A stretch of 64,000 nucleotides of DNA, taken from NCBI RefSeq assembly GCF_041248615.1, contig NZ_CP158426.1; one strand, written 5' to 3'. Shown here in pieces: positions 31,311 through 56,208 of the stretch. The notes under the pieces were generated by a model. That model saw only the letters and a program-made list of their open reading frames with translations. It ran no database searches and was not told the origin of the DNA. A program made the translations under genes and the position numbers. This stretch comes from Escherichia coli. GTDB lineage: Bacteria; Pseudomonadota; Gammaproteobacteria; Enterobacterales; Enterobacteriaceae. The number at the start of each line of letters is the position of its first letter. Position 1 is the first letter of the stretch.

Positions 31311-31320
31311 ATTAACCTCA

Positions 31321-31548: not shown

Positions 31549-31559
31549 GTGAAACTCCT

Positions 31560-32267: not shown

Positions 32268-32284
32268 GAATCTCCTGTGGATTT

Positions 32285-35029: not shown

Positions 35030-35039
35030 AGATAACCTC

Positions 35040-35333
35040 TCAGCTCATCAGCAGTGCGCCGATTTCACTGCCTCCACCAATCAGGATGCCGCCAATGATG
35101 ATGTAGGCGCACTGGGACAGGCTTTCGCCTTTCCAGAGTGTCTTGTAACCTACCCAGATCACGGCCACGGTAATGGTGATGGCCGCCAGGCCATTAAGGC
35201 CGGTGGCGACTTTTTCCATCACGGTATTTGCGCGTTGAAAGCCATCGGCAAAAACCGGAGGTACAGAACAAACGATGAGTGCAAATGCGGAAACATGACT
35301 GAAAGCGGCCTTAAGTTTGCAGCAAAGTGTCAT
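35040..35333 (-). CDS. virB2: VirB2-family pilin
   Basis: 97 aa with two hydrophobic segments; position after virB1. Confidence 0.7.
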   Translation of the reverse strand: MTLCCKLKAAFSHVSAFALIVCSVPPVFADGFQRANTVMEKVATGLNGLAAITITVAVIWVGYKTLWKGESLSQCAYIIIGGILIGGGSEIGALLMS

Positions 35334-36088
35334 TATTCTTTCTCCTCACGGGGTGACAGGGAGAGGCTCCGGCGCAATGACGGCGTAGAGATCTTTTCTA
35401 TGGCAATTTTCTTCTGGCGGAATTTTGAGGGGACGCCACGAACCACGCCCTTCGGCCAGATCACGCAGGGACGTAACTGGTCACCTGCAGGCGTAGGCTT
35501 CAGGAACGGCGGGGGTGTCAATTTATCCTCGTGGGTTCCGGGTACGGCATAGTGGGGAGCAGCAGCGTAACCGATTCGTTGCACATAGCTGGTTCCGGAA
35601 AAAGCCGCTTCCGGCTGTTCTCCGGTACGGAAATTGCCGGAGTAGTAGCAACTCAGTGCTCTTTTCAGCGAGCCGCCGCGTCGGTAACAGTCGTTGAGGA
35701 TGTGTTCGAAAACAGACAAATTGGTACAGGGATCAAGCAGCTCAGAGGCTGTCACACCGTAATGATGGAAATTGGTGCTGGTAATTTGCATCAGCCCCAC
35801 AGAATAACGGCGGCTCTGCGCCATAAGGCGACCTATGATTCGCTCGGCTCTTTCCCGGCTGGTGGGCTGATGAGAAATGATTTTATTGTGACCGAAGGTG
35901 CCTGAGCCCTTTGGGATAATTTCGGCGATCGCATAAGGGTTAAAATTGGACTCCACCCTTACGACGTCGAGTGCTGTGGACGGATGAATGCTGGTGGCAC
36001 ACTGCATGGCCACCGCCAGAAAGGCAGATGTGGAAAGCATAGTAGCCTCGGGAATGCGGGCAGCGTACATAGCCAAAGAACCATGCAT
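35333..36088 (-). CDS. virB1: VirB1-family lytic transglycosylase (SLT domain)
   Basis: SLT motifs VESNFNPYA and GLMQIT; first gene of operon; exact start uncertain. Confidence 0.8.
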   Translation of the reverse strand: MHGSLAMYAARIPEATMLSTSAFLAVAMQCATSIHPSTALDVVRVESNFNPYAIAEIIPKGSGTFGHNKIISHQPTSRERAERIIGRLMAQSRRYSVGLMQITSTNFHHYGVTASELLDPCTNLSVFEHILNDCYRRGGSLKRALSCYYSGNFRTGEQPEAAFSGTSYVQRIGYAAAPHYAVPGTHEDKLTPPPFLKPTPAGDQLRPCVIWPKGVVRGVPSKFRQKKIAIEKISTPSLRRSLSLSPREEKE

Positions 36089-36677
36089 GCTGAGGGAAAC
36101 TTGAAGGGGTAATGTGTGGTTTCGAGATTGTGAGCACTTTGCGCCGGATTTCCGAAGCCATAATAAAGGGTTTCATGAGATATTCTTTACAGGGCTTTTG
36201 ATTCGGGTAAATGCGGCACTAATGTTTTTGAAGTAGATGTTTTATTTCAGCGTGTCTGTTGAAAATTCAAGACCGACAAAATGATGTCACTTGGTTTTAT
36301 CTGGATAGTCTCTAATCAAAATAATAATTAATGGGTCACATCCCAATTCTGCATTCCGATTTCAACGGGTCAGCGAGAACATTCAGCGGCACACTGAATT
36401 AAGGTTGTGTGATAGCCTGATATAAATTATTAAAGAACGGTGCTCGACCAGGCTGAATAAATGCCTAACTGTCAGGTCGATGAGCAGAAACACTATCAGG
36501 ATGGATTTAATTAATATAAATTGGAATGATAAAGTGAAAATGAAATGATAAGAGTTTTTCGGGGATGAATTTTAGTAGTGTAAGGGGAGGGGGATATAAT
36601 CGATGATTGTGTTTGTACTAATAGTGAAATATAAAGACGTGCGGGGTTTTAATTCCCTGCACGCCTTACTGTTAACA

Positions 36678-36887
36678 TTAGCGTTTACGTCGTTCAAGCA
36701 TTTCCTGGCATTCTCTACACGTTGTTACTCCTGGCAGAGTGTGCCTCCGCTTTTCAGGAATTGGTCTACCGCAGAACTGACAGTGATACAGGGAAGGTGT
36801 TGCTGCTGGTTTGAAACGGCTTTGTTCAATCATTTCCTCCAGACGTTGCTCATTGAATTCCTGGTCGCGATCAACTTCGTCAGGCAT
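36678..36887 (-). CDS. TraR/DksA-family C4 zinc-finger protein
   Basis: CQFCGRPIPEKRR...CRECQ four-Cys motif; start at internal ATG of track ORF 36678..36944. Confidence 0.6.
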   Translation of the reverse strand: MPDEVDRDQEFNEQRLEEMIEQSRFKPAATPSLYHCQFCGRPIPEKRRHTLPGVTTCRECQEMLERRKR

Positions 36888-36888
36888 A

Positions 36889-37461
36889 TCATGTCCTCCT
36901 GTCTGTCCTTCCCTGCTCGCAAAATGTGATTCGGTTACACACAACAGTGAGTGAGGGGGGATTGGGCTCTGAGGCTAACTCTTCGGTGATCTGCATCATG
37001 ATGTTAATTGCTTCATTAGCATCAGGACTTTTCCCTTTTAACGCCTTCCATCGGCACCATATTGTGGCATCCATGGTTTCATCAGGAAGAGGTGAGCGTC
37101 CATACGGTACAGAGATGCCCTGTAATCTGCGGTTGAAACAGACATCGTTGGAAGTAAGACCAAAATAATGCTTTAGTAAGGCTATAGATCCACCTAACCG
37201 GATCGCCCGATTAATTTGCTGATGATGCTGGGTTTCAGTACGTGCTCTTTCCAGCTGTTTGCGTAAAATGTCATGGTGAATTTTGACTGTAATAAATGAT
37301 GCGGGAGAGTGGCAGATGTTCAATAATACATCAAGTGGTAACTGACTGATTTCGTTTATTTCTTCAAGAGTAAATCCAAGTGTTTCACCATAAGATAAGT
37401 CACCATCCTTCAATGCATAAATTACATCCGTGAGTACGTAATAATTCAGCAAGGGAAACAT
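36889..37461 (-). CDS. Hypothetical protein, 190 aa
   Basis: ORF only; between alpA-like gene and traR-like gene. Confidence 0.45.
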   Translation of the reverse strand: MFPLLNYYVLTDVIYALKDGDLSYGETLGFTLEEINEISQLPLDVLLNICHSPASFITVKIHHDILRKQLERARTETQHHQQINRAIRLGGSIALLKHYFGLTSNDVCFNRRLQGISVPYGRSPLPDETMDATIWCRWKALKGKSPDANEAINIMMQITEELASEPNPPSLTVVCNRITFCEQGRTDRRT

Positions 37462-37478
37462 AAGTTATCTCTCTTATC

Positions 37479-37664
37479 TTAGCGGTTAGCTAATTTACAA
37501 TTAATCCATTCGTCAATCTCCGACTCGAGCCAGGCTACGCTGGCTGGGCCGATTTTTATTGAGAGTGGGAAACGCTTGTCTTTCATATACAGATAGATTT
37601 GTGAGCGTTTAAGACCTGTTTTTTGCTCGACCTGTCTGAGGCGTAATAATTGATGAGATGGCAT
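37479..37664 (-). CDS. alpA: AlpA-family phage/ICE regulatory protein (excisionase-like HTH)
   Basis: 61-aa product with LRLRQVEQKTGLKRSQIYLYMKDKRFP typical of AlpA family. Confidence 0.8.
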   Translation of the reverse strand: MPSHQLLRLRQVEQKTGLKRSQIYLYMKDKRFPLSIKIGPASVAWLESEIDEWINCKLANR

Positions 37665-37798
37665 TTGTTCCTCCAGGGGCTTATGGCATTGCTATCATAA
37701 AGGAACACAGAATGATGTTTAGATAAAGACAGTGAACCCGTATTACGACATTATTCACCCGTAATACGGATCTCAGAGCTATATACACGAAGGATGTA

Positions 37799-38752
37799 CT
37801 ACTTCACCGTAGTTTTAAACGATAAAGGGGAGCCACGCTCCAGCGCCGTTTTTAGCGTATCACCGCTGAGATGATCGGTGATACCATCAGAGATTGCCCA
37901 TTCCTCAAATATAGACAAGAGTTTGTAGGGTTGTTTCACCAGAGGGCGTATATCATCATTATGATAACAGGCTAGCCAGAACAGCCGGGATAAGGGCGTA
38001 GATATTCTCGTCGGAGATAACTTGGGGTTTTTGTCACTGGTTAGCTTTTCTATCAATCTCTCAATTTCAACACATTTGATAACGAAAAAAGCATCTTGTG
38101 GCAAGTCATGCATTGGGAAGTAGCATGGATCCGCATAGTCCCGCTTTTCATTCCGCAAGGAAGACTCTTTTATTATAGAGGTGGTTTCATTCGATAAGTA
38201 TTTTATCTTGCTCTGAATTTGTTCTTTCCATGATATTTTATTGAAAAGTAAGAAAAGTTCATTTCCACTCGTAACAGTGATGCCAAAATTAATGGTGTCA
38301 GGATTATCAATAGGTAGTGGCATGCTGAGCGAGTCTGCTAGATATCTTTGTATGATAATGTATTCAAATCCAAATAGGTTTGTGTCCAAAATATTCCTGC
38401 GAGATGAAAAGTAATCTCCTTCAGTAGATATGATAAGGTTCCTATTATTTTTGAAACAATGTTTATCAAGAAAGCAGAGTCTCTTTAGCTCTGAATTGTC
38501 CAAGGTAGATATTTTTACTTTTTCTCCATTTTTAGTTATTTTTCGTAATGTCACCGGAGACTGGAAGTAAATGGATAGATTGATTTGCCCATACAGTGCA
38601 CAGCGATATATTGTACTTTCTGTAATTGAAGTATCGAATGTCTCATTAATCACTTGCACAGCTTCGTGTATTGTTAACCAGTTTTTTGCCATAAGCTTGA
38701 GATTGCTATTCCAGGACATAAGTGATTTTCCTTCATTTATTTTCTTTGGCAA
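37799..38752 (-). CDS. Hypothetical protein, 317 aa, AT-rich cargo
   Basis: ORF only; very AT-rich codon usage distinct from flanking T4SS genes. Confidence 0.5.
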   Translation of the reverse strand: MPKKINEGKSLMSWNSNLKLMAKNWLTIHEAVQVINETFDTSITESTIYRCALYGQINLSIYFQSPVTLRKITKNGEKVKISTLDNSELKRLCFLDKHCFKNNRNLIISTEGDYFSSRRNILDTNLFGFEYIIIQRYLADSLSMPLPIDNPDTINFGITVTSGNELFLLFNKISWKEQIQSKIKYLSNETTSIIKESSLRNEKRDYADPCYFPMHDLPQDAFFVIKCVEIERLIEKLTSDKNPKLSPTRISTPLSRLFWLACYHNDDIRPLVKQPYKLLSIFEEWAISDGITDHLSGDTLKTALERGSPLSFKTTVK

Positions 38753-38987
38753 TTATCTGATGCCATAAGTTAATTGATTGCTATCAATGTGAGAAATACC
38801 TCAGCGTTTATAGACATGCGAGGTTCAGAAAAATAAATTATCTTATTGATATTTCTTCTTTATAGCTTGTAAGTGGTAGTCGCCAATGATGCAAGGGAAA
38901 GGGTCTTTATGGGCATATATCCTATCCGTTAATTTCAACCATGTTCTGTTGTCCAGAGTCAGAATACATCTAACTCTGGATACGTTT

Positions 38988-40037
38988 TCACCAGTGATAA
39001 CTTATCCCTGTATCAAGTTTATCTGCACAGTCAATCCCTGCAGGGCTATTTCTGACGTTATTAAATTTATAATCTAAAAATATCTGCATATTTTTGTTGA
39101 AGTAGTAGCTAAAGCCTATTTCTTCATAATCCAGCACTCGGGTTCGTTGGCCAGCGATTGTTTGCGTCAGGTGAGTGTAACCAATGTTGGGCTGAAATCT
39201 GTCGGTCAGCATATACTTAGCCAGGGCTTCATAGCTGAAGGAGTTGGTATTATTGTTGCGAGGTTGGGGGTTGATAGCATTATTACTCTGCGTGAAAACA
39301 GTGGCCAGATAAAGTTTTTTGCTCTGGTACTTGACCCCCTCTGCGAAAGTTCGAATATTTTTTTTGTAACCGGCATTTTGTTGCTGTGAAAATGTGGTCT
39401 CGGAAGATGACGCAGCAAAAATTGCACTGAGCTTTGGCGTAAAGAACCAGGACAGCGAAGTACCAATACCATTGCCGTTCTGTTGTCTTAAGGTACGATT
39501 CTCGTTGTTACTTTTGAACTGGTATTGCATCGCTAATTTCACTGTCTGTTGAAAGACCGAAAATTTTTTTCGCCACGTAATAAGATCAAGGGCTCGGCCA
39601 CGCATGAAGTTGTCAATGTAGTTATAGGACATTTCCCTGAATAAGGGAGAGCGGTCTGTTATTGAGGTAACGTCGTACAGTACCCCCCAGTTCCGACCGA
39701 TATCAAGGCTTCCCCAGTACGGGTTGTCTACACCCAGAAACGCTAGCCGGGTTGCATTTCTGCTGGCATCTGATGCACTAACCGTATATTCCCAATGAGC
39801 GTAGGTTTGCCAGTTGTGGGTAAGTTCATGCTTCCCAATCAACCCAAAATAGAGATAGCTACGATCGCCATCATCTTTTATGTTATTACTGGTAAAACGT
39901 CTCGCAATAATAGTGCCATAAAAATCGAGACTTTTACCGTCCTGGTTCAGAACGTTGACCGCAAAAGAGTAGGGTGAGAAGAGTAGTGTGATTGATATAA
40001 AATAATAGCGTAAGTAATGCAATGTCATGATAAACAT
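38988..40037 (-). CDS. Outer-membrane beta-barrel porin-like protein
   Basis: N-terminal signal peptide; alternating beta-strand pattern; aromatic C-terminus. Confidence 0.55.
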   Translation of the reverse strand: MFIMTLHYLRYYFISITLLFSPYSFAVNVLNQDGKSLDFYGTIIARRFTSNNIKDDGDRSYLYFGLIGKHELTHNWQTYAHWEYTVSASDASRNATRLAFLGVDNPYWGSLDIGRNWGVLYDVTSITDRSPLFREMSYNYIDNFMRGRALDLITWRKKFSVFQQTVKLAMQYQFKSNNENRTLRQQNGNGIGTSLSWFFTPKLSAIFAASSSETTFSQQQNAGYKKNIRTFAEGVKYQSKKLYLATVFTQSNNAINPQPRNNNTNSFSYEALAKYMLTDRFQPNIGYTHLTQTIAGQRTRVLDYEEIGFSYYFNKNMQIFLDYKFNNVRNSPAGIDCADKLDTGISYHW

Positions 40038-40133
40038 CCCTAAAGATGGCTCAGCATCTGAATGGTGGCAGGGTGGACAATTTACCGCGACATATGCTCA
40101 TTGCTTAAATCCAATGGAATGAGATTATTATCG

Positions 40134-40970
40134 TTATGCTGAAGCGTTTTGTTTATGGCTAAAATAACTGATGATGCCATTAGAAATGGCGGATGCAATT
40201 TTGTTGCGGAATGCTGTTGTGCCTAATAATTTCTCCTCCTGTGGGTTGGTGATAAAAGAGGTTTCAATCAGGACAGATGGGATATAGGGTGATTTAAGTA
40301 CGGCAAAAGCTGCCTGTTCTGTATGGTTTGAATGCATATGGTGGACAGGAGAAATATGGTGAACTATATGTGATCCCAGTAAAAGACTTTCCCTGATGGT
40401 TTCAGTCTGTTCAAGATCGAAGATGATTTTGTCGAGATACTTGTCTCTGTGAATGATTCGTTTTCCTGCAATATTATCAGCAGCATTCTCACTTTTAGAT
40501 AGATACCTTGCCATAGCGCTGCTGGCTCCCCGTGTTGAAAGTGCAAAAACGGAAGCGCCATGGGCTGCAGGACTTGCGAAACCATCGGCGTGAATGGACA
40601 TAAATAGATCGGCTTTGTGTGCGTGAGCAATCTGTACGCGATCGTATAGTGGAATAAATGTGTCATCCGATCGCGTCTGGAGTGCATTAATACCGTGGCT
40701 ATTGAGAATGGCTTTTATCTTAGAGGTAATATCCAGTACTACATGTTTTTCCAGCGATCCTTCACAACCCACTGCGCCGGAATCAATACCCCCGTGTCCA
40801 GGATCTAGCATTATCGTAAATTTGCTACGCCCATTTGTTGGGAGGGAGGAATGCTTATGACTTAGCTGAGGTCGCATATGTGCATATGTCAGCGGTATAG
40901 CCAGTGTATTGGCTGCGAGGGCCGCTAAACCAGTAAGAATAAGTTTTCGCCGGGTAATGTTGGTGTTCAA
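40134..40970 (-). CDS. N-acetylmuramoyl-L-alanine amidase (Amidase_3 family) with Tat-like signal
   Basis: RRKLILTGLAALAA twin-arginine signal; FTIMLDPGHGGIDSGAVG and SIHADG motifs. Confidence 0.85.
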   Translation of the reverse strand: MNTNITRRKLILTGLAALAANTLAIPLTYAHMRPQLSHKHSSLPTNGRSKFTIMLDPGHGGIDSGAVGCEGSLEKHVVLDITSKIKAILNSHGINALQTRSDDTFIPLYDRVQIAHAHKADLFMSIHADGFASPAAHGASVFALSTRGASSAMARYLSKSENAADNIAGKRIIHRDKYLDKIIFDLEQTETIRESLLLGSHIVHHISPVHHMHSNHTEQAAFAVLKSPYIPSVLIETSFITNPQEEKLLGTTAFRNKIASAISNGIISYFSHKQNASA

Positions 40971-41412
40971 TGTTGACGCCTCATGCTGAATGATTTGTTA
41001 TGTTATAACGTTATGAATTATTTAAGGTCGAGGACTTGAATGTTATTTTTTGTTGCTTCGGGTTACTTAATATTAATCATTGGAAAATCACGAGGCTCCC
41101 AATGTATTGATAAATTGGATTTTTAATACCCATCACTACCTCTCATCGCTTGAATCATGATGACATCAGGCGTCCAGGTATGATCGTAATCTGCAAGAGC
41201 ACTGCTGATTAGCCTTTGTCCCATCTGTTTACTTTAAATCCTGAATTATCAAACAGGACAATGGAGTCCTGCTGGAAACATATTGATATAGATCCTTTCA
41301 AAAGATAATTATTCTCATTATTATTGGTTATGTTATAACGTAACAATTGAGGGTGTGCCGAGATTTAGAATGAGTCTATCCATTATTCGATGACTTATTC
41401 TGGGGAGGAATT

Positions 41413-42795
41413 ATGTCAACTGAACATATCAAAGAAGAAAAACTCAACATTGGTGCTGTGCTGGCTGTATCACTTAGTACAGTGATTGCGATGCTGGACA
41501 GCACTATCGCAAATGTTGCCTTACCTGTTATTGGCAAAGATTTTGCCGTCTCAGAAGCTGCATCCATCATGATAATCAATGCTTACCAGTTTGCTGTGGT
41601 CGCTTCATTGCTGGTATTCGCTGCATTGGGAGGCAAAATAGGTAACAAACGTATTTTTATTCTTGGAGTGATTTTTTTTGCGCTTTCCTCGTTAGGATGT
41701 GCACTTTCTGAAACACTGATGATGCTGACGGCTTTTCGCGTCATTCAGGGCTTTGGGGCTGCGGCCATTCTAAGTGTGAATGCGGTGTTGATTAAAGAGA
41801 TCTATCCTGCCCGGTTGTTAGGTCGTGGATTGGGGATTAATGTAATGGTGGTCTCTGTTTCCGCAGCGGCGGGCCCGTCAATTGCTTCAGCTATTATGTC
41901 AGTTGCGAACTGGAACTGGTTGTTTTCTATTAATGTACCGATCGCTTGTATTTCATTGCTGCTCTGTATTGTATCGTTCAAATCGACGCAACGTACCGAA
42001 AACCGGTTTGATAAAGCGGGTGCGTTGCTGGTTTTCCTGACGTTCGCTTCGTTTTCAACGATGATGCTGGGTCTGGCGAGGAACAACGTGTTAGACGTTA
42101 TCCCAAGCTCGATTATTCTTGTCGTGCTGGCAATCACTTTGTATCTGAATCAAAAAAGAAAGATTACTGATGCTTTGATCCCGGTTGCGATATTTCGCAA
42201 CAGGACATTTTCTCTGTCGTTATTAATGTCTTTGTTATCATATAGTACGCAGTTACTGGCATATGTCTCCTTACCATTTTATTTTCATAATGTATTAAAC
42301 CGCAATGTCGTTGAAATTGGCATGCTGTTAACGGCATGGCCGCTGGCGACAATGTTGACGTCATTGGTCGCGGGTGAACTAATCAAAAAGTTCGAGCCCA
42401 ACCTGGTAGCATTTACCGGACTATTACTACTTTTGATAGGCACTCTTTTAATGACATGGCTGCCCGTACAACCCTCGAATCTGCAGATCCTCTGGCGGAT
42501 CGCTATTTGTGGTTTTGGTTTTGGACTATTCCAGTCCCCTAATAATTTTCTCATTATGACTTCGGTCCCACATGAAAATAGCGGTATTGCCAGCGGATTA
42601 TTAGGCAGTTCACGTCTGATTGGGCAGATTATTGGTTCTGTGCTGGTGGCGTTTTTCTTTAATAACTTTGGGCGTAATGTAACAAATATTAGTCTTTTTG
42701 CCGGAGCATTGTTCTCATTTATGTCTCTGGCGGTGAGTTATCTCCGCTATAAATCTGCTTCTCATGACGTTGGTTTTGTTAAGAAAGTAATATAA
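41413..42795 (+). CDS. MFS transporter (DHA2-like, 14-TMS type)
   Basis: 460 aa; multiple TM helices; MFS motifs around LDSTIANVALPVIGKDF. Confidence 0.85.
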   Translation: MSTEHIKEEKLNIGAVLAVSLSTVIAMLDSTIANVALPVIGKDFAVSEAASIMIINAYQFAVVASLLVFAALGGKIGNKRIFILGVIFFALSSLGCALSETLMMLTAFRVIQGFGAAAILSVNAVLIKEIYPARLLGRGLGINVMVVSVSAAAGPSIASAIMSVANWNWLFSINVPIACISLLLCIVSFKSTQRTENRFDKAGALLVFLTFASFSTMMLGLARNNVLDVIPSSIILVVLAITLYLNQKRKITDALIPVAIFRNRTFSLSLLMSLLSYSTQLLAYVSLPFYFHNVLNRNVVEIGMLLTAWPLATMLTSLVAGELIKKFEPNLVAFTGLLLLLIGTLLMTWLPVQPSNLQILWRIAICGFGFGLFQSPNNFLIMTSVPHENSGIASGLLGSSRLIGQIIGSVLVAFFFNNFGRNVTNISLFAGALFSFMSLAVSYLRYKSASHDVGFVKKVI

Positions 42796-42854
42796 GTCTT
42801 TCAATAAAATAATCATGTGATGCTATTAAATTACAATTCATTTAACTCATTGAG

Positions 42855-43943
42855 GTGCTAAGTATGCTTAATGGAAAAATATTATTCTCATTATTCATAT
42901 CATCGATAATATTATTATCAACGGCAAGCTATGCCAATAGTAGTGAGGTGAGTAAGACGATAAATGACCAAAATATGAAAAATACTGAAGAAATACCCAT
43001 AAAATTCAACCGTATTATTATCACCGGCAATTGCCCCTTTGGTGTAATTATGGCAAATGATTTGGCATATAAACATGTTGTGGGCGTAGGACCTTGGGCT
43101 TTTCTGCATTCAAACATGAAACTTCTCAAGGATATGAAGCCAGATATCGACCGTATCACTACTGACTTTATTAATAAAGACTATGTTGTAAATATGGAAT
43201 CCTTACTAAATTTACAACCAGATATTATTTACTATTATGGTAAAAGTCAGAATGATAATCTGCAGCGGGCAGGGATCCCAACTATTAATCTTGATGCTGG
43301 TGGTGACACGAAATTTGAGCCAGTAGTAACGCAAACGTATTGGGAAAACGAATTTAACCAGACGCTTGGTTTACCTCACAGTCACAAATTTTCGGATGCA
43401 TGGAAGAGAAGCCTCAATGAGGCAAAACCATATGCCGAGAAGATCAAATCACAACATATTCGGGCATTATATCTTGAGCAGAGTGATGGGAAAGAGCTCA
43501 AGGTGAGTGGGCCGAAAACATATGGTGATACCTATCTTAAGATGGCGGGGATGGAAAATGTAGCAAGTGATCTGGTGGTAAAAGGGGATGCTGGCAGGTA
43601 CATTAATGTTTCAATGGAGCAAATAATTCAGTGGGATCCCGATGTTGTATTTGTGGTCTTTGGTAGCGCGAAGGATATTCTTAATAATAAAAATCCCGGG
43701 CAAGATTGGCATAATGTTAAAGCATTCAAAGATGGGAAAATATTTTCTACACCCGTAGGACTACATAATTGGGGAGGATTGTCTGCTGAGACTTCGCTAT
43801 TACCATTGTTTATGATTAATAAATTTAACCCTGACTATATAACAGATGCAGAATTGAAAGTTGCAACGCGGTTACACTATAAAAAAGTGTTTGATTATGA
43901 AATTCCGGACGCGCTATTAACCGATGAGTTAAGACAGCGGTAA
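42855..43943 (+). CDS. ABC transporter periplasmic substrate-binding protein (iron-siderophore / B12 / heme type)
   Basis: Signal peptide; followed by FecCD-type permease and ATPase genes. Confidence 0.75.
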   Translation: MLSMLNGKILFSLFISSIILLSTASYANSSEVSKTINDQNMKNTEEIPIKFNRIIITGNCPFGVIMANDLAYKHVVGVGPWAFLHSNMKLLKDMKPDIDRITTDFINKDYVVNMESLLNLQPDIIYYYGKSQNDNLQRAGIPTINLDAGGDTKFEPVVTQTYWENEFNQTLGLPHSHKFSDAWKRSLNEAKPYAEKIKSQHIRALYLEQSDGKELKVSGPKTYGDTYLKMAGMENVASDLVVKGDAGRYINVSMEQIIQWDPDVVFVVFGSAKDILNNKNPGQDWHNVKAFKDGKIFSTPVGLHNWGGLSAETSLLPLFMINKFNPDYITDAELKVATRLHYKKVFDYEIPDALLTDELRQR

Positions 43944-43986
43944 TAAAGTAATTCGGCGAATAGGTTTTTATTTTTAAAGGTTAGTT

Positions 43987-45000
43987 ATGCAGGAAAGACA
44001 AAAATACCGCATGCTGATGTGGATTTCAATCGTATTGTTACTGATTGTGGCTATGATTTCTTTGTTCATAGGTCGCTATACATTATCTATCCCCGAAATA
44101 ATGACGGAGGTATTACATGATAATGGTCACCGTTGTTTGAGCGCAGGATTCTCGGTTATATGCAATCTACGGTTGCCAAGGATTATTGCCGTCATGATGG
44201 TAGGGGCAGGGCTATCAGTAGCAGGCGTGACGTATCAAGCGGTGTTGCGAAATGCACTGGCTAGCCCGGATGTGCTCGGTACATCTTCCGCCGCAGCGTT
44301 CGGCGCAGCACTTGGGATACTGCTAGGTTTTCCACTACAACTCAGCGCTTTTTCCTCTTTCTTCTTTGGCATTGTCAGCCTTTTATGCGTGATGGGACTT
44401 TGCCATTTCAAGAAAAACAATGGGGAGCTCACGACTATCCTGTCGGGCATCATAGTGGCTTCGGTGTTTATGTCTTTTGTATCAATCATTAAATATGTTG
44501 CCGATCCACAGGACGAACTCCCGGCTATCGTCTTCTGGCTTATGGGGAGTTTCGCTTCTCTGGTCAAAGAGCAGGTTTATGGACTCATCCCGCTATACAT
44601 CATTTGTTATCTGGCTATTTACAAACTTCGATGGAAAATCAATGTGTTGTCTTTGGGAAATGATGAGGCCAAAATTGCTGGAATGAACCCACAATTGTTG
44701 AATACAGTTTTGCTAATCACAGCCTCAATTTTGGTGGCAGCATCAGTCACCATCGCTGGCGTGGTGGGCTGGGTTGGTCTGGTTATCCCGCATCTGGTTA
44801 GAACGCTGGTCGGGTACAACCATAGCAAGCTGATCCCGGCTTCGGCTGTATGTGGTGCGTTGTTTTTATTGGTCATCGACAACATTGCCAGGACCCTGAC
44901 TTACGCAGAGATCCCCATTGGAATACTTACTGCTCTGGTTGGTGCGCCTTTATTTGCTGTACTGTTCATCATGAGTAACCGATATGATCGAAGTGAATAA
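43987..45000 (+). CDS. ABC transporter permease, FecCD family
   Basis: 337 aa polytopic; FecCD-like conserved region; overlaps ATPase gene start. Confidence 0.85.
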   Translation: MQERQKYRMLMWISIVLLLIVAMISLFIGRYTLSIPEIMTEVLHDNGHRCLSAGFSVICNLRLPRIIAVMMVGAGLSVAGVTYQAVLRNALASPDVLGTSSAAAFGAALGILLGFPLQLSAFSSFFFGIVSLLCVMGLCHFKKNNGELTTILSGIIVASVFMSFVSIIKYVADPQDELPAIVFWLMGSFASLVKEQVYGLIPLYIICYLAIYKLRWKINVLSLGNDEAKIAGMNPQLLNTVLLITASILVAASVTIAGVVGWVGLVIPHLVRTLVGYNHSKLIPASAVCGALFLLVIDNIARTLTYAEIPIGILTALVGAPLFAVLFIMSNRYDRSE

Positions 45001-45739
45001 TCTGACGTTCGCATTCAAAAAGAGTAAAACTGCCTTTAACAATATCAGCTTCTCCATTGATGAAGGTGAGGTACTGTGCGTATTAGGACCGAATGGTGTT
45101 GGCAAAACAACATTGCTTAAAACGGTTACCGGTCTGTATCAACCGGTTAGTGGCTCATGTCATATTGGCCGAGTGGGAAACCGGAAAGCTCGTATGGCGT
45201 ATGTCCCGCAGGCCAAACGTGTTCACTTTTCTTACAATGTACTCGATTTCATCTCCTTTGGGTGCCCATTACGGGGCGGAATGCTGGCATCTCCTGGGGC
45301 GAGGGACATCGAAAAAGCGGCGCGAATATTGTCGGGACTTGGCGCTTCATATCTTGCAACCAAAGACGTTAACCAGATAAGTGGAGGTGAACTACAGATG
45401 TGCTACATCGCGAAGGCGCTGGTCTCAGAGCCGGACATCCTTGTGCTTGATGAACCTGAATCAAATCTTGATTTTAATAATCAGTCTCTCATTATCAATT
45501 GGTTGCACACGTTGTCGCGAGAGAAAAAAGTTACTATTATCCTGAATACGCACTTCATCAATCATGCAAATAACATTGCAGATAAATGTTTGCTAATGGG
45601 AAAAGATAGTTACTGTTTTGGAACAACACAGAGTGTCTTACAAGAGTCTCTCCTCGCCGATTATTTCCATGTTCCCGTTAAACGCTGTCATTTTGAACAC
45701 AAAGGAATACAGAAAGAATCATTTATTGTTGCAGTGTGA
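44984..45739 (+). CDS. ABC transporter ATP-binding protein
   Basis: Walker A GPNGVGKTT; signature ISGGELQM; Walker B ILVLDEP. Confidence 0.9.
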   Translation: MIEVNNLTFAFKKSKTAFNNISFSIDEGEVLCVLGPNGVGKTTLLKTVTGLYQPVSGSCHIGRVGNRKARMAYVPQAKRVHFSYNVLDFISFGCPLRGGMLASPGARDIEKAARILSGLGASYLATKDVNQISGGELQMCYIAKALVSEPDILVLDEPESNLDFNNQSLIINWLHTLSREKKVTIILNTHFINHANNIADKCLLMGKDSYCFGTTQSVLQESLLADYFHVPVKRCHFEHKGIQKESFIVAV

Positions 45740-45934
45740 TAGGTAGCCAATATCGCAGAGAAAATAAGAATTGAGGAATTGTTTATTGCGAAACCGTGCG
45801 AGTAGATGGTAATTCTGGTAGGAATATCATTTACGATTGATCAATTTTCCCACGGACTATATGCGATAAAATAACTTTGTCGATGCATGAAATAGCAGCT
45901 TCATTTTGTTAAAAGTAATAATAAAGGTGTAATT

Positions 45935-46552
45935 ATGATTAAAAAATTCGTTGAAGAATATCTTAATCAGATCTACATAAAAAAATACTCAATTATTACT
46001 ATTAATTCTCTTGATGAAGCTTCAATTATATCTAATATGCCTCATTGTTGGGAGCGTGATTTTCTGAAAAGAGAGCTGCATCTTCGAAGTGATATTGTAT
46101 TGAAAGCTAGAAGTAAAATAACCCCCTTCAAATGGTCTTCTGTAAATGGTAATAATGAAGATCTTAAGGCTTTATCCAATAGGTATAATATTAGCAATGG
46201 GGTGACTTTTGTTATAAAAATAAAACATGATGTCGTGATCTTCACGATGTACTACAATGAGGATGATGAGGATTTCATAAGATACTACTCTAGAAAGAAA
46301 CATAAAATATTGTATGATGTTATGAGTCTTTTTGAATCCCATTATGAACAAACACCCAAACATGTATTCACTGTACGAGAAAAGGAAGTTATGAATTTGC
46401 TGAAGTTTGGAAAAACTTATATTGAAATAGCATTTATTCTTGGTGTAAGTGAAAGGACCGTCAGATTTCATATCAATAATATTCTTGATAAATTGAATGT
46501 GACATCAGTTCGTTATGCGATCTTTAAAGCAGCTTCCGAAGGTTTGATCTGA
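45935..46552 (+). CDS. LuxR/FixJ-family HTH transcriptional regulator
   Basis: C-terminal LuxR-type HTH REKEVMNLLKFGKTYIEIAFILGVSERTVRFHINNILDKL; AT-rich. Confidence 0.75.
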   Translation: MIKKFVEEYLNQIYIKKYSIITINSLDEASIISNMPHCWERDFLKRELHLRSDIVLKARSKITPFKWSSVNGNNEDLKALSNRYNISNGVTFVIKIKHDVVIFTMYYNEDDEDFIRYYSRKKHKILYDVMSLFESHYEQTPKHVFTVREKEVMNLLKFGKTYIEIAFILGVSERTVRFHINNILDKLNVTSVRYAIFKAASEGLI

Positions 46553-46572
46553 CAAGGTTTTCCTTGTCAGAT
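46545..46572. terminator. Perfect hairpin GATCTGACAAGG-TTTT-CCTTGTCAGATC at luxR-type gene 3' end
   Basis: 12-bp stem, 4-nt loop overlapping the stop codon. Confidence 0.6.
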
Positions 46573-46578
46573 CATCTA

Positions 46579-46836
46579 TCAATGACGATAGAATTCTGAA
46601 AGGCGTAATCTCAAGCCATCGGTATCAAATCCATGCGCCCGAATGTGTTCTTCTGGGGTCCAAAATTGTCTGAGCTCCTTTGGTTTTGCACCAATGGACA
46701 AGATTCTGTGAGGTATATCGGACAATGCCTCACCTATAGCATGAATTGTCGTTCCTTCTAGGTATGGTTAACCTAGCCGGTTTATTACTACATGTCGTGG
46801 CAACTCCAGCGGAGTACATAATAGTCCATTCAGCAT
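46579..46836 (-). pseudogene. Short interrupted ORF (about 85 codons with one in-frame TAA), possible gene remnant
   Basis: Hand translation MLNGLLCTPLELPRHVVINRLG*PYLEGTTIHAIGEALSDIPHRILSIGAKPKELRQFWTPEEHIRAHGFDTDGLRLRLSEFYRH; protein-like but interrupted. Confidence 0.3.
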
Positions 46837-46883
46837 TGTTACTTTTTGTGAACTAGACTGGAAAAGAACTGGGTCAAATCACA

Positions 46884-48158
46884 TTAAATGAAGATACGTA
46901 GGCCGACCGCCGCCAGATGATCTGATACATTATATGACGCATCAGTGTTACCGCTTGCTTTCTCATAACCGTATTCAATATAGGTCACTGCGTTTTTCCC
47001 CAGCCAGTAATCGGTACCCAGCGTGGTGGACTGGAAGTGTTGACCGTCCATCGCATCACCGCCTTCGGTCCAGTCAAAGTTGGCATAGACGCTCCACTCA
47101 GGGGTAATTTTGAACTGTGAGGCATATTCCAGACCCAGAATCGTTTCTTGGTCGTTAGTCTGTTTGCTGGCGCCGCTGGTTGCTGCCTGAACGTCATCAA
47201 CTTTGTTGATATAGTAAGTCGCTTGCGCGCCGTTATACCAGGTGAAACTATCAAAGCTGGTTGTGTACTTAGCGTTCATCCCCATCGAATAGGTATTACC
47301 GTCATATGAAGGGCCGGTCACCGTTGTAACTGGAACAGTACCACCGTGCGGACCTATGGGCACATCCGTGGTTATGGTACCCTGATTGACAGAATAGTTG
47401 TTATAAGCTGCCGTACCGGAAAGTGAGAAACCATTATCGAAGCGATATTGTGCTGCTAACGCAGCGCCGCCGTGAACAGTCGCGGAACCATCGTGGTACG
47501 CATCATGCATATCCGGTCCGTTGCCGTAACCGCTGCCAAAACCAATTTTATCGACATCGTCATTCCCTTGGCCCATTACACCCACCGTGAAGGCCTTGGT
47601 GTTGTAATAATAAATAACAGCCGAGTTAATAATATCGGTCGACATACCAGTGGTATCATGTTTGGCTTTGCCACCGTATGCATAGGTGGTATCAATTCCC
47701 AGCCCCCAGTCGGTTGGGGAATATTGCTTACCGAAAGTCACCACCCCATATTCATCATTACCTATCCCCGCATACGCCTGACGGGTATAAACATCGTTAC
47801 CCTGATTATCAGTTGCGGAATCCAGACCGTGTATGCCAGTTTCATAATAACCTGCTGCGTAATAGCCTTTGTCATTAATATTGTGTCGTAGTGCGACACC
47901 CAGACGTGAGTCGTTGTTTTGTATATTATGTTCTACACTGTGCGCTGAATCGTTCTTTGCCATGAGACGTAAGGATCCCATAACTGAAATGGCTGTATCA
48001 TCATTTTGATAAATCATCTCCCCCTTGGTCTGTGTAGCAGTATATGCTGGAGCCGTATGTTCCCCGCTACTCACCTGTGCACAGGCAGGTGCGACTATTG
48101 CTGCAGTAATAAGCGGAGCAACAATAAATGGTTTAAGTCTTATATATTTTACGTGCAT
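46884..48158 (-). CDS. Outer-membrane porin-like beta-barrel protein
   Basis: Signal peptide MHVKYIRLKPFIVAPLITAAIVAPACAQ; Gly/Tyr/Asn/Thr-rich barrel-like composition; start at internal ATG of track ORF. Confidence 0.7.
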   Translation of the reverse strand: MHVKYIRLKPFIVAPLITAAIVAPACAQVSSGEHTAPAYTATQTKGEMIYQNDDTAISVMGSLRLMAKNDSAHSVEHNIQNNDSRLGVALRHNINDKGYYAAGYYETGIHGLDSATDNQGNDVYTRQAYAGIGNDEYGVVTFGKQYSPTDWGLGIDTTYAYGGKAKHDTTGMSTDIINSAVIYYYNTKAFTVGVMGQGNDDVDKIGFGSGYGNGPDMHDAYHDGSATVHGGAALAAQYRFDNGFSLSGTAAYNNYSVNQGTITTDVPIGPHGGTVPVTTVTGPSYDGNTYSMGMNAKYTTSFDSFTWYNGAQATYYINKVDDVQAATSGASKQTNDQETILGLEYASQFKITPEWSVYANFDWTEGGDAMDGQHFQSTTLGTDYWLGKNAVTYIEYGYEKASGNTDASYNVSDHLAAVGLRIFI

Positions 48159-48422
48159 AGAAACCCCATGATCATTGTTTAAGTTCATTTTTAGAGTGTT
48201 TTTTAAATATGGAGAGTCTATTAAAAGCTTTTGAATATAAAATAAAACTGTCAGTTCTGACAGGAGTGTTTTTTATTTTCAATTAAATTATTAAGCATTT
48301 TTTCGGAGATGTGGGTTTTTTACACGGTATTAGCGAAACGGTTTGCCATGTAGTTTGGACAAAGTAAAAAGCCGCATCAGTCTGCACTGATGCGGCTTTG
48401 ATTTGTCAGGGTGACTAAATCA

Positions 48423-49694
48423 CTAGCCAGCTTGAAGCGTCGTTTTTCCTCTCCCCAGTATGTAGGGCGGTACATAGGATTTGCGGCAAGTATCCAGATA
48501 ATCCGACCACCACTGCATCATTGCCTTTCTTGCTTCCAGATGCTCTGCTCTGTGAATATATGCCTGGCGTACGGAGTTACGTTCCTGGTGGCTCATTTGC
48601 CGTTCAACAGCATCCTGTGACCATATACTGGATTCCATAAGGGCACTGCATGCCATTGTCCTGAAACCGTGACCACAGATTTCCATTTTCGTATCCCAGC
48701 CCATCAGGCGTAGCGCCTTGTTCACCGTATTTTCACACATGGGTTTATACGGATTATGGTCCCCGGGGAACACGAGTGCATTATCTCCTGAGATATCCTT
48801 AATCTTTTTCAAGATCGCGATCGACTGTTGTGAGAGGGGTACGATATGAGGCCTGCGCATTTTGGCACCACGACCAGAGTAACGCACGCCTTCAATAGCT
48901 TCGCGCGTGGCGGGTATTGTCCAGACCTGGTTTCCGAAATCAATTTCATGCCAGCGGGCAAAACGCAATTCACTCGAGCGAATGAACAGATGCAGTGTTA
49001 GCAGGATGGCAAGGCGAGTGAGTTCACGGCACTGCTGAAAACTCTCAATGCTCTCAAGCAGTTCTGGAAGACGCTCCAGTGGTAGAGCGGGGTAGTGTCG
49101 TTTTACTGGTGGAGCCGTCACTCCGTCAAGGTTTGCTGCCGGATTAAAATCGATTAATCCATGATGCACGGCGTAGCGCATGATATTCCGGAGGTGCTGG
49201 CGTGTACGGGATGCAACTTCCAGGAGACCCTTTTCCTCAATTCCTTTTAATAAAGTGATGAAATGGCGGGGTTTCAGTTCTGAAACTGACATGGTGCCAA
49301 TGACTGGGAAGATATGATTATTCATGCTGGCGAGCAAACGGTCGGCGGTGTTCTCTGACCATTTTTTATTGCTCTTGTGCCATGCAAGTGCAACGTTTCT
49401 AAACACTTTCTTTGGCATGCGAGAACTGCGTTCGGCTGCTCGCTGCTCTGCTGGATTGATGTTCAGTACCAGCATTTTGCGAATACCTTCACGTTGACTA
49501 CGGGCGTCTGAGAGGGAGATGACTGGGTAGGCACCGAGTGCAATACGTGATTCTTTACCCTTAATACGGTACTTGAGATACCAGTGACGTGAACCGCCAG
49601 GTTTGACCAAGAGATACAGACCGTGGGAATCGGAAACTTTAAAGGGTTTATCAGATGGTTTGAGACTGCGGATTTTGGTGTCGGTAAGAGACAT
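48423..49694 (-). CDS. int: P4-type tyrosine integrase (tRNA-adjacent)
   Basis: 423 aa; N-terminal arm-binding-like region, C-terminal catalytic domain; 161 nt from tRNA-Asn 3' end. Confidence 0.9.
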   Translation of the reverse strand: MSLTDTKIRSLKPSDKPFKVSDSHGLYLLVKPGGSRHWYLKYRIKGKESRIALGAYPVISLSDARSQREGIRKMLVLNINPAEQRAAERSSRMPKKVFRNVALAWHKSNKKWSENTADRLLASMNNHIFPVIGTMSVSELKPRHFITLLKGIEEKGLLEVASRTRQHLRNIMRYAVHHGLIDFNPAANLDGVTAPPVKRHYPALPLERLPELLESIESFQQCRELTRLAILLTLHLFIRSSELRFARWHEIDFGNQVWTIPATREAIEGVRYSGRGAKMRRPHIVPLSQQSIAILKKIKDISGDNALVFPGDHNPYKPMCENTVNKALRLMGWDTKMEICGHGFRTMACSALMESSIWSQDAVERQMSHQERNSVRQAYIHRAEHLEARKAMMQWWSDYLDTCRKSYVPPYILGRGKTTLQAG

Positions 49695-49855
49695 ATGGGG
49701 TCACTCCATAATAGAACGAACCGGACCCCAGATTTGACCACCAATTTTTCCCGATGCGGAGGATAAAATCAAAATGCATCAGGAGAAGTTTTCACGCTAA
49801 GCTGTTGTATTAAAACCATAGAGGCATTAATGAATGCTGCACGAAAACAAGAATT

Positions 49856-49931
49856 TGGCTCCTCTGACTGGACTCGAACCAGTGACATACGGATTAACAG
49901 TCCGCCGTTCTACCGACTGAACTACAGAGGA
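49856..49931 (-). tRNA. asnT: tRNA-Asn (anticodon GUU)
   Basis: Reverse complement reads TCCTCTGTAGTTCAGTCGGTAGAACGGCGGACTGTTAATCCGTATGTCACTGGTTCGAGTCCAGTCAGAGGAGCCA; matches recalled E. coli tRNA-Asn; next to mtfA as at the E. coli asnT locus. Confidence 0.95.
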
Positions 49932-50031
49932 ATCGTGTGAACGGGGCGCATATTACTTAGCGGTACCTTGTCTGTCAACACTAAATTTCATAAGCCATTT
50001 CAATTGGTTAATTAATCTGCAAAGTTGTTAA

Positions 50032-50829
50032 TTAATGAACATTCGTCGCCGAAAACGAGTCTGTATCATTAGCGTGATGCAGTCTCTGCAAAGGATCTTG
50101 TTGATAAAATTGGCAGAAACGTTGCCACAATGAAGGGAAACGAGGAGCAAAAAGTTCTGGGGCGCTAAAGAAATATTCAGAAAGTACGGCAAAACACTCA
50201 GCAGGATCACTGGCAGCATAAGCATCGATGCTCGCCGCATTCTCGCCAACTAATTCGATTTCTTCCTGAATGTTGTTCATTGCAGCATGAAGATCGTGTT
50301 CCCAGCTAGCAACCTCACGCAACGGAATAAAGGGAACTCCGCTGGCGCGATCGCCGTTACGGGTGTCCAGCTTATGAGCGACTTCATGAATAATCAGGTT
50401 AAAACCAGAAGCATCAAAAGAATCTTGTATATCCAACCAGTTCAAAACGATAGGCCCTTGCTGCCAGCTCTGACCTGACTGAACAATACGTTGGTTATGC
50501 ACCAGACCGATATCGTCTTCCCATTCGTCATCGACCACAAATGGCGCAGGATAAATTAAGACTTCATGAAAACCATCCAGCCATTCCAGTCCTAACTCCA
50601 GAACGGGCAGGCAAAATAGAAGTGCTATCCGGCAGCTTCTTAATGAATCCAGTTCAAAGCCCTGTAAAGGAACAAGCCGCTTTTGCTGTAAAAAACGTTC
50701 GGCAAGAGTGACTAATTTGCTTTGTTCCTGTTCCGTCAGACACGTTAAAAGGGGGATCGATAGTGCTTCCTGCCAGGGAAGGGCAGTTTGATGTGCTGAT
50801 TCTTGTACTTTCCAGGGCCACTTAATCAT
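50032..50829 (-). CDS. mtfA: Mlc titration factor A (zinc-dependent peptidase MtfA)
   Basis: 265 aa from [13 protein letters not shown]; HEVAH zinc-binding motif; conserved position between serU and asnT. Confidence 0.9.
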
Positions 50830-50922
50830 CGTTTTGCTCGCAAACTCGTCACTTGAACAAAATTGCACGGACAGGGACTGTTAAAATGCCAAATTTCCTG
50901 GCATCATGGCAACCATCTGAAC

Positions 50923-51012
50923 GGAGAGATGCCGGAGCGGCTGAACGGACCGGTCTCGAAAACCGGAGTGGGGGCAACTCCACCGGGGGTTCAAATCCCC
51001 CTCTCTCCGCCA
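50923..51012 (+). tRNA. serU: tRNA-Ser (anticodon CGA)
   Basis: 90-nt GGAGAGATGCCGGAGCGGCTGAACGGACCGGTCTCGAAAACCGG...CCCCCTCTCTCCGCCA with long variable arm. Confidence 0.9.
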
Positions 51013-51064
51013 AAATTCAATCACTTACACATCATTAAGTCAGTGACAAAAATCACACTTGGAA

Positions 51065-52090: not shown

Positions 52091-52293
52091 CAGATCGCAC
52101 CAAAATTCGGCTCTACCTCGCGTGGTGGTAAAGTTTTATTGCAGGTAAATAGATCCCGGCTGACAATCGGTTTGCCACTACGATTGGTATAGAACGGAAG
52201 CCCGTTTTCCATTAACCATTTTCGCTGGTGGCTTGCATATTTGCAGCCCGTTAATATTAGCAATTCATCTTCGGTTAAAAATAAGCTGCTCAT
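52090..52293 (-). CDS. xis: Excisionase-like protein
   Basis: 67 aa; immediately upstream of integrase with 1-nt overlap. Confidence 0.65.
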   Translation of the reverse strand: MSSLFLTEDELLILTGCKYASHQRKWLMENGLPFYTNRSGKPIVSRDLFTCNKTLPPREVEPNFGAI

Positions 52294-52351
52294 AGCTATA
52301 TCTCATAACCGCCGCTAACTATATACGGTTAGCGGCAATTAGGGTTGAACA

Positions 52352-56207: not shown

Positions 56208-56208
56208 A

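Follow-up and report, generated by a model that had tools for sequence, protein, structure and literature searches.

A putative Zur-controlled transport and amidase module in the yersiniabactin slot of a tRNA-Asn integrative and conjugative element of Escherichia coli

In Pseudomonas aeruginosa, the Zur-regulated cluster A-II ABC system PA2911-PA2914 has been proposed to import chelated zinc (PMC4542158), and Pseudomonas Zur regulons include AmiA paralogues (PMC2770081, PMC6103462, PMC4542158). Opine zincophore clusters contain FecCD-type importers (PMC7438024), and the staphylopine cnt promoters are controlled by paired Fur and Zur boxes (PMC7594338). The porin MspD is reported to take part in the zinc homeostasis of Mycobacterium smegmatis (PMC13098993), the VSP-II island of Vibrio cholerae to contain Zur-regulated genes (PMC8248653), and yersiniabactin to serve zinc uptake (cited in PMC4542158). 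Here, we analyse a stretch of 64,000 nucleotides of Escherichia coli DNA (contig NZ_CP158426.1; hereafter "the window"), which contains an integrative and conjugative element (ICE) ending at a tRNA-Asn gene. We focus on the 10.4-kb block next to the integrase (37799-48158) and, within it, on a six-gene core (38988-45739) encoding a porin, an AmiA-type amidase, a transporter of the major facilitator superfamily (MFS), and the binding protein, permease, and ATPase of an ABC importer.

This core is probably a self-contained zinc-starvation module under control of the host Zur, captured by an ICE of the high-pathogenicity island (HPI) type in the slot otherwise used for yersiniabactin (ybt). Each of its components has precedents. 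What is new is how they are combined (porin-based entry, MFS transporter, amidase operon, dual operators), that this combination occurs in Enterobacterales, and that a conjugative element carries it in the ybt slot. A literature search, outside of which lay most subscription papers and RegPrecise, returned no description of the module in Serratia or other Enterobacterales, of Zur-regulated porins in Enterobacteriaceae, or of zinc cargo on tRNA-Asn ICEs.

Like the module, PA2911-PA2914 combines a FecCD/BtuC-type importer and a cluster A-II binding protein with a Zur site and has no linked biosynthesis genes (PMC4542158). The two systems, likened here by description, differ at the outer membrane, where PA2911-PA2914 uses a TonB-dependent receptor and the module offers a general-porin homologue. 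Moreover, the module is mobile and further comprises an MFS transporter and an amidase operon. The Cnt systems for staphylopine, pseudopaline, and yersinopine likewise pair an exporter with an ABC importer, which is of FecCD type in Yersinia/Serratia-type clusters (PMC7438024), and the Staphylococcus aureus cnt promoters have adjacent Fur and Zur boxes (PMC7594338), as seems to be the case at the MFS promoter of the module. In contrast to Cnt, the module contains neither CntL/CntM nor any other biosynthetic gene, its exporter is DHA2-like, and it includes a porin and an amidase. Pseudomonas AmiA (PA5538) is, like the module enzyme, an AmiA-type amidase that retains its zinc ligands and whose gene follows a Zur box (PMC2770081, PMC4542158), and the Zur-linked cell-wall hydrolases ShyB and MepM (PMC6381278) are comparable. 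Unlike these three, the module amidase is apparently co-transcribed with a porin, diverges from a transport operon, and resides on an ICE in Enterobacterales. PhoE resembles the module porin as an OmpF-family porin which, as the operator suggests for the module, would be expressed only under one nutrient limitation; the module porin differs by its L3 loop and by a Zur box instead of a Pho box. Among mobile elements, VSP-II is also reported to carry genes behind host-type Zur boxes (PMC8248653); its cargo, however, comprises chemotaxis and congregation genes, while that of the module comprises transport and envelope genes on a conjugative element. Finally, ICEEc1-like HPI elements share with the window ICE the integrase site, the cargo slot, and a backbone running ArdC-MobC-type IV coupling protein (T4CP)-VirB type IV secretion system (T4SS)-SLT-TraR-DUF2857-AlpA-308-aa gene. 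Their cargo is the ~30-kb ybt-fyuA locus of non-ribosomal peptide synthetase and polyketide synthase (NRPS/PKS) genes, whereas the window ICE holds a biosynthesis-free uptake module with Zur boxes.

Zinc regulation of the core module is well supported by the sequence of the 442-bp region between the amidase and MFS genes, which contains two copies of one palindrome, predicted here to be Zur operators (Table 1). The window was searched with TGWNAYRWTATAWYRTNWCA, the structure-based E. coli pattern of Gilston et al (PMC4219657), allowing at most two mismatches. Boxes 1 and 2 are the only matches in the 64 kb, with a chance expectation of 0.31 per window. With an idealised ykgM palindrome, shuffled sequences yield 0.07 matches of at least 16/20 per window, and the proven K-12 operators themselves reach 16-19/20 (ykgM 19/20, znuC 16/20, zinT 16/20). 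Both boxes are near-identical to the K-12 ykgM (L31p) operator cTGTTATGTTATAACATAACCa, the tightest binding among four E. coli Zur operators (Gilston et al, PMC4219657). Box 1 lies directly downstream of a predicted minus-strand -10 (promoter hexamers 41046..41017), and box 2 begins 2 nt past a predicted -10 (41319-41324); both boxes start at most 2 nt from these hexamers, which are only 9/12 consensus matches.

Table 1. Features of the cargo block and of the integrase end of the ICE, with positions in the window.
Feature	Position	Strand	Remarks
ICE backbone gene, 306 aa (ATG) or 317 aa (upstream TTG at 38752)	37799..38719/38752	-	Edge of cargo slot
Module porin, 346/349 aa	38988..40028/40037	-	Second gene of amiA-porin operon; 16-strand general-porin homologue
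AmiA paralogue, N-acetylmuramoyl-L-alanine amidase	40134..40970	-	Tat signal TRRKLIL; NCBIfam NF007652 413 bits (cut-off 400)
Zur box 1, TGTTATGTTATAACGTTATG	40996..41015		Predicted operator of amiA-porin promoter; 2 mismatches to TGWNAYRWTATAWYRTNWCA; 16/20 vs ykgM palindrome
Fur-like box, GATAATTATTCTCATTATT	41304..41322		16/19 match to GATAATGATAATCATTATC; overlaps spacer and -10 of MFS promoter
Zur box 2, GGTTATGTTATAACGTAACA	41326..41345		Predicted operator of MFS-ABC operon; 1 mismatch to TGWNAYRWTATAWYRTNWCA; 18/20 vs ykgM palindrome
DHA2/EmrB-like MFS transporter, 460 aa	41413..42795	+	First gene of importer operon; TIGR00711 DHA2 efflux 199 bits (cut-off 230)
Periplasmic substrate-binding protein, 359 aa, class III/cluster A-II	42864..43943	+	Peripla_BP_2, Pfam PF01497, E = 1e-13
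FecCD/BtuC-type ABC permease, 337 aa	43987..45000	+	BtuC 186, FecD 168, FhuB 165 bits, all below cut-offs
ABC ATPase, 251 aa	44984..45739	+	Start overlaps end of permease gene
LuxR-family regulator, 205 aa	45935..46552	+	Pfam GerE E = 5e-15; Autoind_bind E = 5.5e-5
Atypical porin, 424 aa	46884..48158	-	Weak Porin_1 match, E = 5e-5
P4-type tyrosine integrase	48423..49694	-	NF007246, 248 bits; annotated; ends ICE
tRNA-Asn(GTT) with attR	49855..49931 (tRNA itself 49856-49931)	-	17-bp repeat TTGGCTCCTCTGACTGG at 49855-49871

The operators are conserved in sequence. In an alignment of eight loci, drawn from the copies of E. coli, Yersinia, Yokenella, Serratia, and Klebsiella, the cores of box 1 (GTTATAAC) and box 2 (TATGTTATAACGT) are invariant, unlike the intergenic DNA around them, which is poorly conserved. 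Both boxes are kept in every ICE, Yokenella, Serratia, and Klebsiella copy. The Fur-like box directly upstream of box 2 is the best Fur match in the window (shuffled sequences yield 0.01 matches at 16 or more positions). In Serratia sp. PL17 it forms a 7-1-7 palindrome that is near-perfect, and the S. grimesii box is likewise palindromic and better than that of the window, while the box is degenerate (12/19) in the S. marcescens clade; the local conservation at this site may partly just reflect the -35 hexamer. No Zur box was found upstream of the 424-aa porin, the LuxR gene, or the stand-alone porin homologues, nor in the gap before the module porin, and a 15/20 match to the ykgM palindrome between the MFS and binding-protein genes (42816-42835) is within chance expectation. 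An Rfam search of 36000-51500 for riboswitches and other cis-acting RNAs, at an E-value of 1 or better, returned only two tRNAs and a chance plastid match.

In the core, porin and amidase share one strand and point away from MFS, binding protein, permease, and ATPase on the other; this gene order recurs in other genera. All six genes occur in the same order, at 54-82% protein identity, in the chromosomes of Yokenella and of five Serratia (S. grimesii, S. marcescens, S. bockelmannii, S. ureilytica, and Serratia sp. PL17). An ICE of Yersinia artesiana carries DUF2857, the 317-aa gene, the six genes, integrase, and tRNA-Asn at 96-100% protein identity. Citrobacter gillenii has the same genes at 96-100% as far as they were recovered, the locus stopping inside the ATPase gene, and probably carries a near-identical ICE. 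In Klebsiella aerogenes (locus 2989-19077), where ArdC and tra genes of the F type (TraM, A, L, E, K) adjoin the module, both Zur boxes are retained, and a 424-aa porin homologue is inserted between amidase and MFS. Mobilisation of the module has thus happened at least twice, on different conjugative backbones. A reduced locus in Salmonella enterica (7884-11888) consists of porin, binding protein, permease, and ATPase on one strand, without amidase and MFS genes, in an island with insertion sequence (IS), PerC, and autotransporter genes.

The right-hand operon encodes a type II ABC importer of the FecCD/BtuCD kind, with a Peripla_BP_2 protein bearing a signal peptide, a FecCD permease, and an ATPase in one operon, whose genes overlap or are closely spaced without terminator-like sites between them. 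It is not of ZnuABC type: the binding protein belongs to PF01497 and not to ZnuA (cluster A-I), the permease is FecCD and not ZnuB, and the ZnuC match of the ATPase is generic (96 bits vs a cut-off of 306). The AlphaFold2 model of the binding protein (confidence, pLDDT, 81) has a fold closest to those of proteins binding chelates and oxyanions, which makes it a binder of the chelate type (cluster A-II). Its nearest neighbours among solved structures are 4ovk, whose ligand is unknown, the Ni-(His)2 form of H. pylori CeuE, MolA, and YiuA. Its close relatives (54-99% identical) are few and confined to Enterobacterales, and the next relatives in the genome scan, at no more than 37%, come from Tissierellia, Clostridium, and Treponema. 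The MFS protein, presumed to be an exporter, shares 70-79% identity with its counterparts in the modules of Yokenella, Serratia, and Klebsiella. Genes for CntL (nicotianamine-synthase-like) and CntM (opine dehydrogenase) are absent among the block's open reading frames (ORFs) of at least 80 aa and in the chromosomal homologues.

Calling the substrate from curated families or solved structures was abandoned, as the transporter matches fall below their cut-offs and the structural neighbours bind different ligands. Transfer from distant binding-protein relatives was likewise rejected because these are too distant: a Leclercia/Pantoea-type relative (~24%) lies beside a ModA-like gene and an Opp/Nik-type system, a Clostridium relative (28%) beside NifH/NifE-like genes and MATE pumps, and a Tissierellia relative (37%) beside an ArsR/SmtB-type regulator.

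On the opposite strand, amidase and porin are separated by 96 nt without a terminator-like site. They are no miscellaneous envelope cargo; with their own Zur box, they rather appear as a second operon of the module. The amidase is an AmiA: it passes the equivalog cut-off, keeps the Tat signal, and is 57% identical to K-12 AmiA, with the twin-arginine motif and the columns H65, E80, and H133, which we take to be the zinc ligands of AmiA, invariant. The porin belongs to the general-porin superfamily only. It matches the NCBIfam PhoE, OmpC, and OmpF models with E values from 1e-57 to 1e-45, yet at 154-195 bits against cut-offs of 484-599, with PhoE as the top-scoring model (195 bits), and it is 30% identical to K-12 OmpF. 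Scoring below the equivalog cut-off and with the PEFGG motif of L3 replaced, it is no orthologue of OmpC, OmpF, or PhoE. Where OmpF has PEFGGD, the module porins have P(L/F)FREM(S/A)YNYIDNFMRGRA, essentially unchanged in all six aligned sequences (PLFREMSYNYIDNFMRGRA in the window porin). Since this loop is essentially invariant although the other module porins are only ~58-77% identical overall to the window porin, it suggests a specific constriction.

The porin gene accompanies the importer genes in all loci read, the reduced Salmonella version among them. No TonB-dependent receptor was found in the block or beside the module in the Yokenella, Serratia, Klebsiella, and Salmonella loci read. 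Because such a receptor is lacking and Salmonella keeps porin and importer together, the porin may well be the outer-membrane partner of the importer, and the substrate would be porin-sized.

The element carrying the module is a VirB-type conjugative element, annotated with MobC, T4CP, VirB2-11, SLT, TraR, DUF2857, and AlpA. Its integrase at the tRNA 3' end, its direct repeats, and a T4SS backbone syntenic with that of a ybt ICE identify it as an HPI-type ICE at tRNA-Asn, and mtfA adjoins its tRNA-Asn end. A second, single further copy of the 17-bp repeat, ~1.9 kb left of the window start (record 2081785-2081801), represents attL, of which none was found within the 64-kb window; the spacing of the repeats gives an ICE length of ~51.7 kb. 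A T4SS of ~79% nucleotide identity is carried by ~200 E. coli genomes. One of these, E. coli SCEC020007, has the same backbone order, and directly past its 308-aa backbone gene follows fyuA-ybtE-ybtT-ybtU-irp1-irp2, i.e., the position taken by the zinc module in the window ICE. As another E. coli relative holds a TetR-efflux pump and cytochrome oxidase there, the slot is a hot spot for cargo. The proposal that the block replaces a siderophore locus is thus borne out in position, the ybt slot of a related tRNA-Asn ICE, but the metal signal is that of zinc.

The full 10.4-kb block occurs in 5/5426 complete E. coli genome assemblies, two of the five being the same strain, and matches E. coli NRZ14408 (NZ_LT599825.1) at 100%. 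At the same tRNA-Asn, E. coli 300081 (locus 10808-14753) retains only the integrase and a 3'-truncated 424-aa porin gene abutting an IS3 element; this locus is a decayed remnant of this ICE type.

The original prediction had described the block as AT-rich, integrase-proximal ICE cargo, with a GC content lower than that of the T4SS genes and a metal-type ABC importer without biosynthetic genes. These points hold: GC is 41.3% in the block, 49.3% in the T4SS/backbone (19300-37460), and 46.2% in the chromosome right of the tRNA, and all the genes it named were recovered in place by ORF, profile, and annotation checks. All ORFs of at least 80 aa in the block are accounted for, the extras being only short overlapping or antisense ORFs. 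The ORF list contains no NRPS/PKS-sized ORF in the block, in agreement with the same prediction. GC within the block is uneven, with 30.9% in the LuxR gene, 37.8% in the binding-protein gene, and 47.4% in the 424-aa porin gene. The block is in fact three things: the six-gene core, a variable add-on of LuxR gene and 424-aa porin, and an ICE backbone gene.

Several alternative explanations have to be weighed against a zinc module. The transporter had at first been labelled Fe/siderophore-type, in which case the ABC system would import a ferric chelate or haem under Fur, and a siderophore produced elsewhere would leave the cell through the MFS protein. FecCD and Peripla_BP_2 families classically import iron chelates, the structures similar to the binding protein include YiuA and further iron-chelate binders, relatives hold ybt in the same slot, and the 16/19 Fur-like box over the MFS promoter has a chance expectation of 0.01. 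However, the conserved elements in the ICE, Yokenella, Serratia, and Klebsiella copies are two Zur operators against this one Fur-like box, which drops to 12/19 in the S. marcescens clade, and the amiA-porin promoter carries a Zur box only. Ferric siderophores and haem cross the outer membrane via a TonB-dependent receptor, which is absent from every locus read. Further, the binding protein scores 28, 20, and 20 bits against the curated iron, haem, and siderophore models, with cut-offs of ~300-325. Iron uptake is thus an unlikely primary function. Alternatively, Zur could control the zinc-sparing import of another metal or cofactor, such as nickel-histidine, cobalt, or cobalamin, an idea already raised for PA2911-14 (PMC4542158). 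BtuC is the top curated permease model, and the solved structures nearest to the binding protein include CeuE with Ni-(His)2. Yet the BtuC score barely exceeds those of FecD and FhuB, all of them below cut-off, and the Rfam search revealed no cobalamin riboswitch in 36000-51500 at an E-value of 1 or better. Cobalamin, moreover, crosses the outer membrane through the TonB-dependent BtuB and not through a porin. We regard this possibility as rather improbable.

Two further alternatives concern the envelope genes and the extent of the unit. As the AmiA-type amidase and the porin form one operon of the module, and as other cell-wall enzymes have a known link to Zur (ShyB, MepM next to znu, PMC6381278; pliG), the core might serve envelope remodelling, the amidase freeing peptides, the ABC and MFS proteins moving the fragments, and zinc control reflecting the metal need of the amidase. 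We consider this very unlikely in view of the reduced Salmonella locus, which keeps porin and importer without the amidase, and of the transporter class. Peptide import uses the Opp/Dpp families, whereas a class III binding protein with a FecCD permease stands for import of metal chelates or cofactors. The original view of the whole 10.4-kb block as one module, here in the form of a single LuxR-controlled unit including the second porin, could appeal to the contiguity of the genes in the window, to the 424-aa porin homologue inside the K. aerogenes module, and to the LuxR-family genes that also follow the module in Serratia. But the conserved unit consists of the six genes from porin to ATPase: the Yersinia ICE has these at 96-100% and neither the LuxR gene nor the second porin, and in E. 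coli A38 a 5.9-kb AfsA-type cluster separates the latter two. Moreover, the window LuxR is unrelated to the Serratia LuxR genes (tblastn, no match at 1e-5), other 424-aa porin homologues stand alone, and neither gene has a Zur box. Such a unit is hardly credible, and the LuxR gene, the 424-aa porin, and the 306-aa gene lie outside the zinc module.

Some observations also weigh against the zinc module itself. Zur control is deduced from sequence, a good Fur-like box adjoins Zur box 2, and an iron or broad-spectrum metal chelate is a possible substrate given this arrangement; the reduced Salmonella copy has no recognisable Zur box. The nearest solved relatives of the binding protein differ in ligand (nickel-histidine, molybdate, and iron chelates; unknown for 4ovk), and its family scores are far below cut-off. 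The module has no chelator biosynthesis genes, and the amidase keeps the presumed zinc-ligand columns, so it is no obvious zinc-independent substitute. Finally, all Yokenella, Serratia, and Klebsiella copies read contain a gene of 133-134 aa between the MFS and binding-protein genes (e.g., locus 9569-9973, 9538-9939), whose product belongs to no known family and has a lipoprotein signal (LSGC/LCGC) as well as a hydrophobic C-terminal tail rich in Gly and Ala. In the ICE copies this gene has been lost, leaving ~60 nt between its two neighbours (window 42795-42864). Because of this loss, the ICE version is possibly incomplete, and its full function is not guaranteed.

For the zinc module, we infer the following mode of action. 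In zinc-replete cells, Zn-Zur would occupy the two operators, each just past a -10, and shut off the amiA-porin and MFS-ABC operons, to which the Fur-like box over the MFS promoter may add iron control. Under zinc scarcity, both operons would turn on. The dedicated porin with its own constriction loop could then admit a small hydrophilic zinc species to the periplasm without a TonB-dependent receptor, and the chelate-type binding protein would pass this species to the FecCD-type importer. The MFS protein may export the free ligand or apo-chelator, or a common metabolite acting as ligand; since the module has no biosynthetic genes, the ligand would be made elsewhere or by other organisms. The extra Tat-exported AmiA would raise the dose of a zinc-dependent cell-separation amidase and thereby offset poorly metallated periplasmic amidases.

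On a broader level, we suggest only tentatively that Enterobacterales have an undescribed mobile zinc system composed of a Zur-controlled porin gate, a chelate ABC importer, MFS ligand export, and a back-up amidase, which ICEs swap for yersiniabactin between E. coli, Yersinia, and probably Citrobacter. Such a system would bear on how zinc passes the enterobacterial outer membrane and on what Zur-regulated chelate-type ABC importers carry. It would also add an amidase of Enterobacterales to the cell-wall hydrolases connected with zinc limitation, and part of a zinc-starvation regulon could spread by conjugation among gut and clinical Enterobacterales. Placement in the ybt slot suggests that acquisition of metals is under selection there. 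The module, which comprises six genes and two operators and already resides in an E. coli whose Zur should recognise the latter, constitutes a compact and transferable test system.

At the left edge of the block, the 317-aa gene had been considered an orphan. Instead, the protein has more than 350 homologues of 300-310 aa at ~50% identity across Enterobacterales, none with a Pfam domain. Its gene is always located beside AlpA-DUF2857-TraR-SLT-VirB2-VirB3/4, in another E. coli, in Pectobacterium, and in a ybt-carrying ICE. It is thus a widespread, conserved ICE backbone gene at the cargo boundary and not cargo. Pfam, PHROGs, and PADLOC gave no match for the protein, save a faint hint of an N-terminal helix-turn-helix. 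A defence or phage role, considered for this ORF, the 424-aa porin, the LuxR protein, and the missing lipoprotein, was dropped, as PHROGs and PADLOC gave nothing useful.

At the right edge, the integrase of the Yersinia ICE directly follows the ATPase gene, and thus the LuxR gene and the 424-aa porin represent an extra insert in the E. coli copy. The Autoind_bind match of the LuxR protein is weak and partial, covering positions 29-123 in a model of 149, and typical members of the family exceed the protein in length by 30-45 aa. In E. coli A38 (locus 14780-20650), the 5.9-kb cluster between the LuxR gene and the 424-aa porin, missing from the window (46553-46883), encodes a split (two-gene) transketolase, an MFS protein, a HAD hydrolase, a ketoacyl synthase (KAS), an acyl carrier protein (ACP), and an AfsA-related hotdog protein. 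It looks like a set for synthesis of a butyrolactone- or butenolide-type signal, which would be unusual for E. coli. The LuxR protein is probably the receptor belonging to an A38-type signal-synthesis cluster that is deleted in the window. The 424-aa porin family comprises only 16 related clusters, all from Enterobacterales except one weak match, with stand-alone members in Rahnella, K. oxytoca, and Edaphovirga.

In Rahnella bruchi (locus 9001-14430), a LysR-UbiD-UbiX-DUF554 cluster lies directly beside the homologue of the 424-aa porin. A cluster of the same genes is found near the left end of the window ICE (~7700-11600), with ~69% nucleotide identity to the Rahnella bruchi cluster (UbiD protein 81%). 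Hence, cargo pieces at opposite ends of the ICE are neighbours in Rahnella.

The window contains two further AT-rich cargo blocks, at ~2000-7000 and 14000-17000. In the former, the segment ~2390-6380 (31-34% GC) is annotated with an "ABC-three component" system, a large AAA ATPase, and a ComEC/Rec2-like protein and is probably an anti-phage defence island inside the ICE. In the latter, the segment ~14200-17200 (34% GC) encodes a GT32 glycosyltransferase and a glycoside hydrolase of family 16. A degraded integrase fragment lies before this segment, and an additional copy of hchA and an IS3 element come after it. Right of tRNA-Ser(CGA), a lambdoid or Rac-like prophage with a frameshifted integrase occupies 50923-64000 and contains dicB, ydfABC, hokD, an FRG-domain gene, a four-tRNA cluster, and lysis genes, and thus ICE and prophage reside at adjacent tRNA sites.

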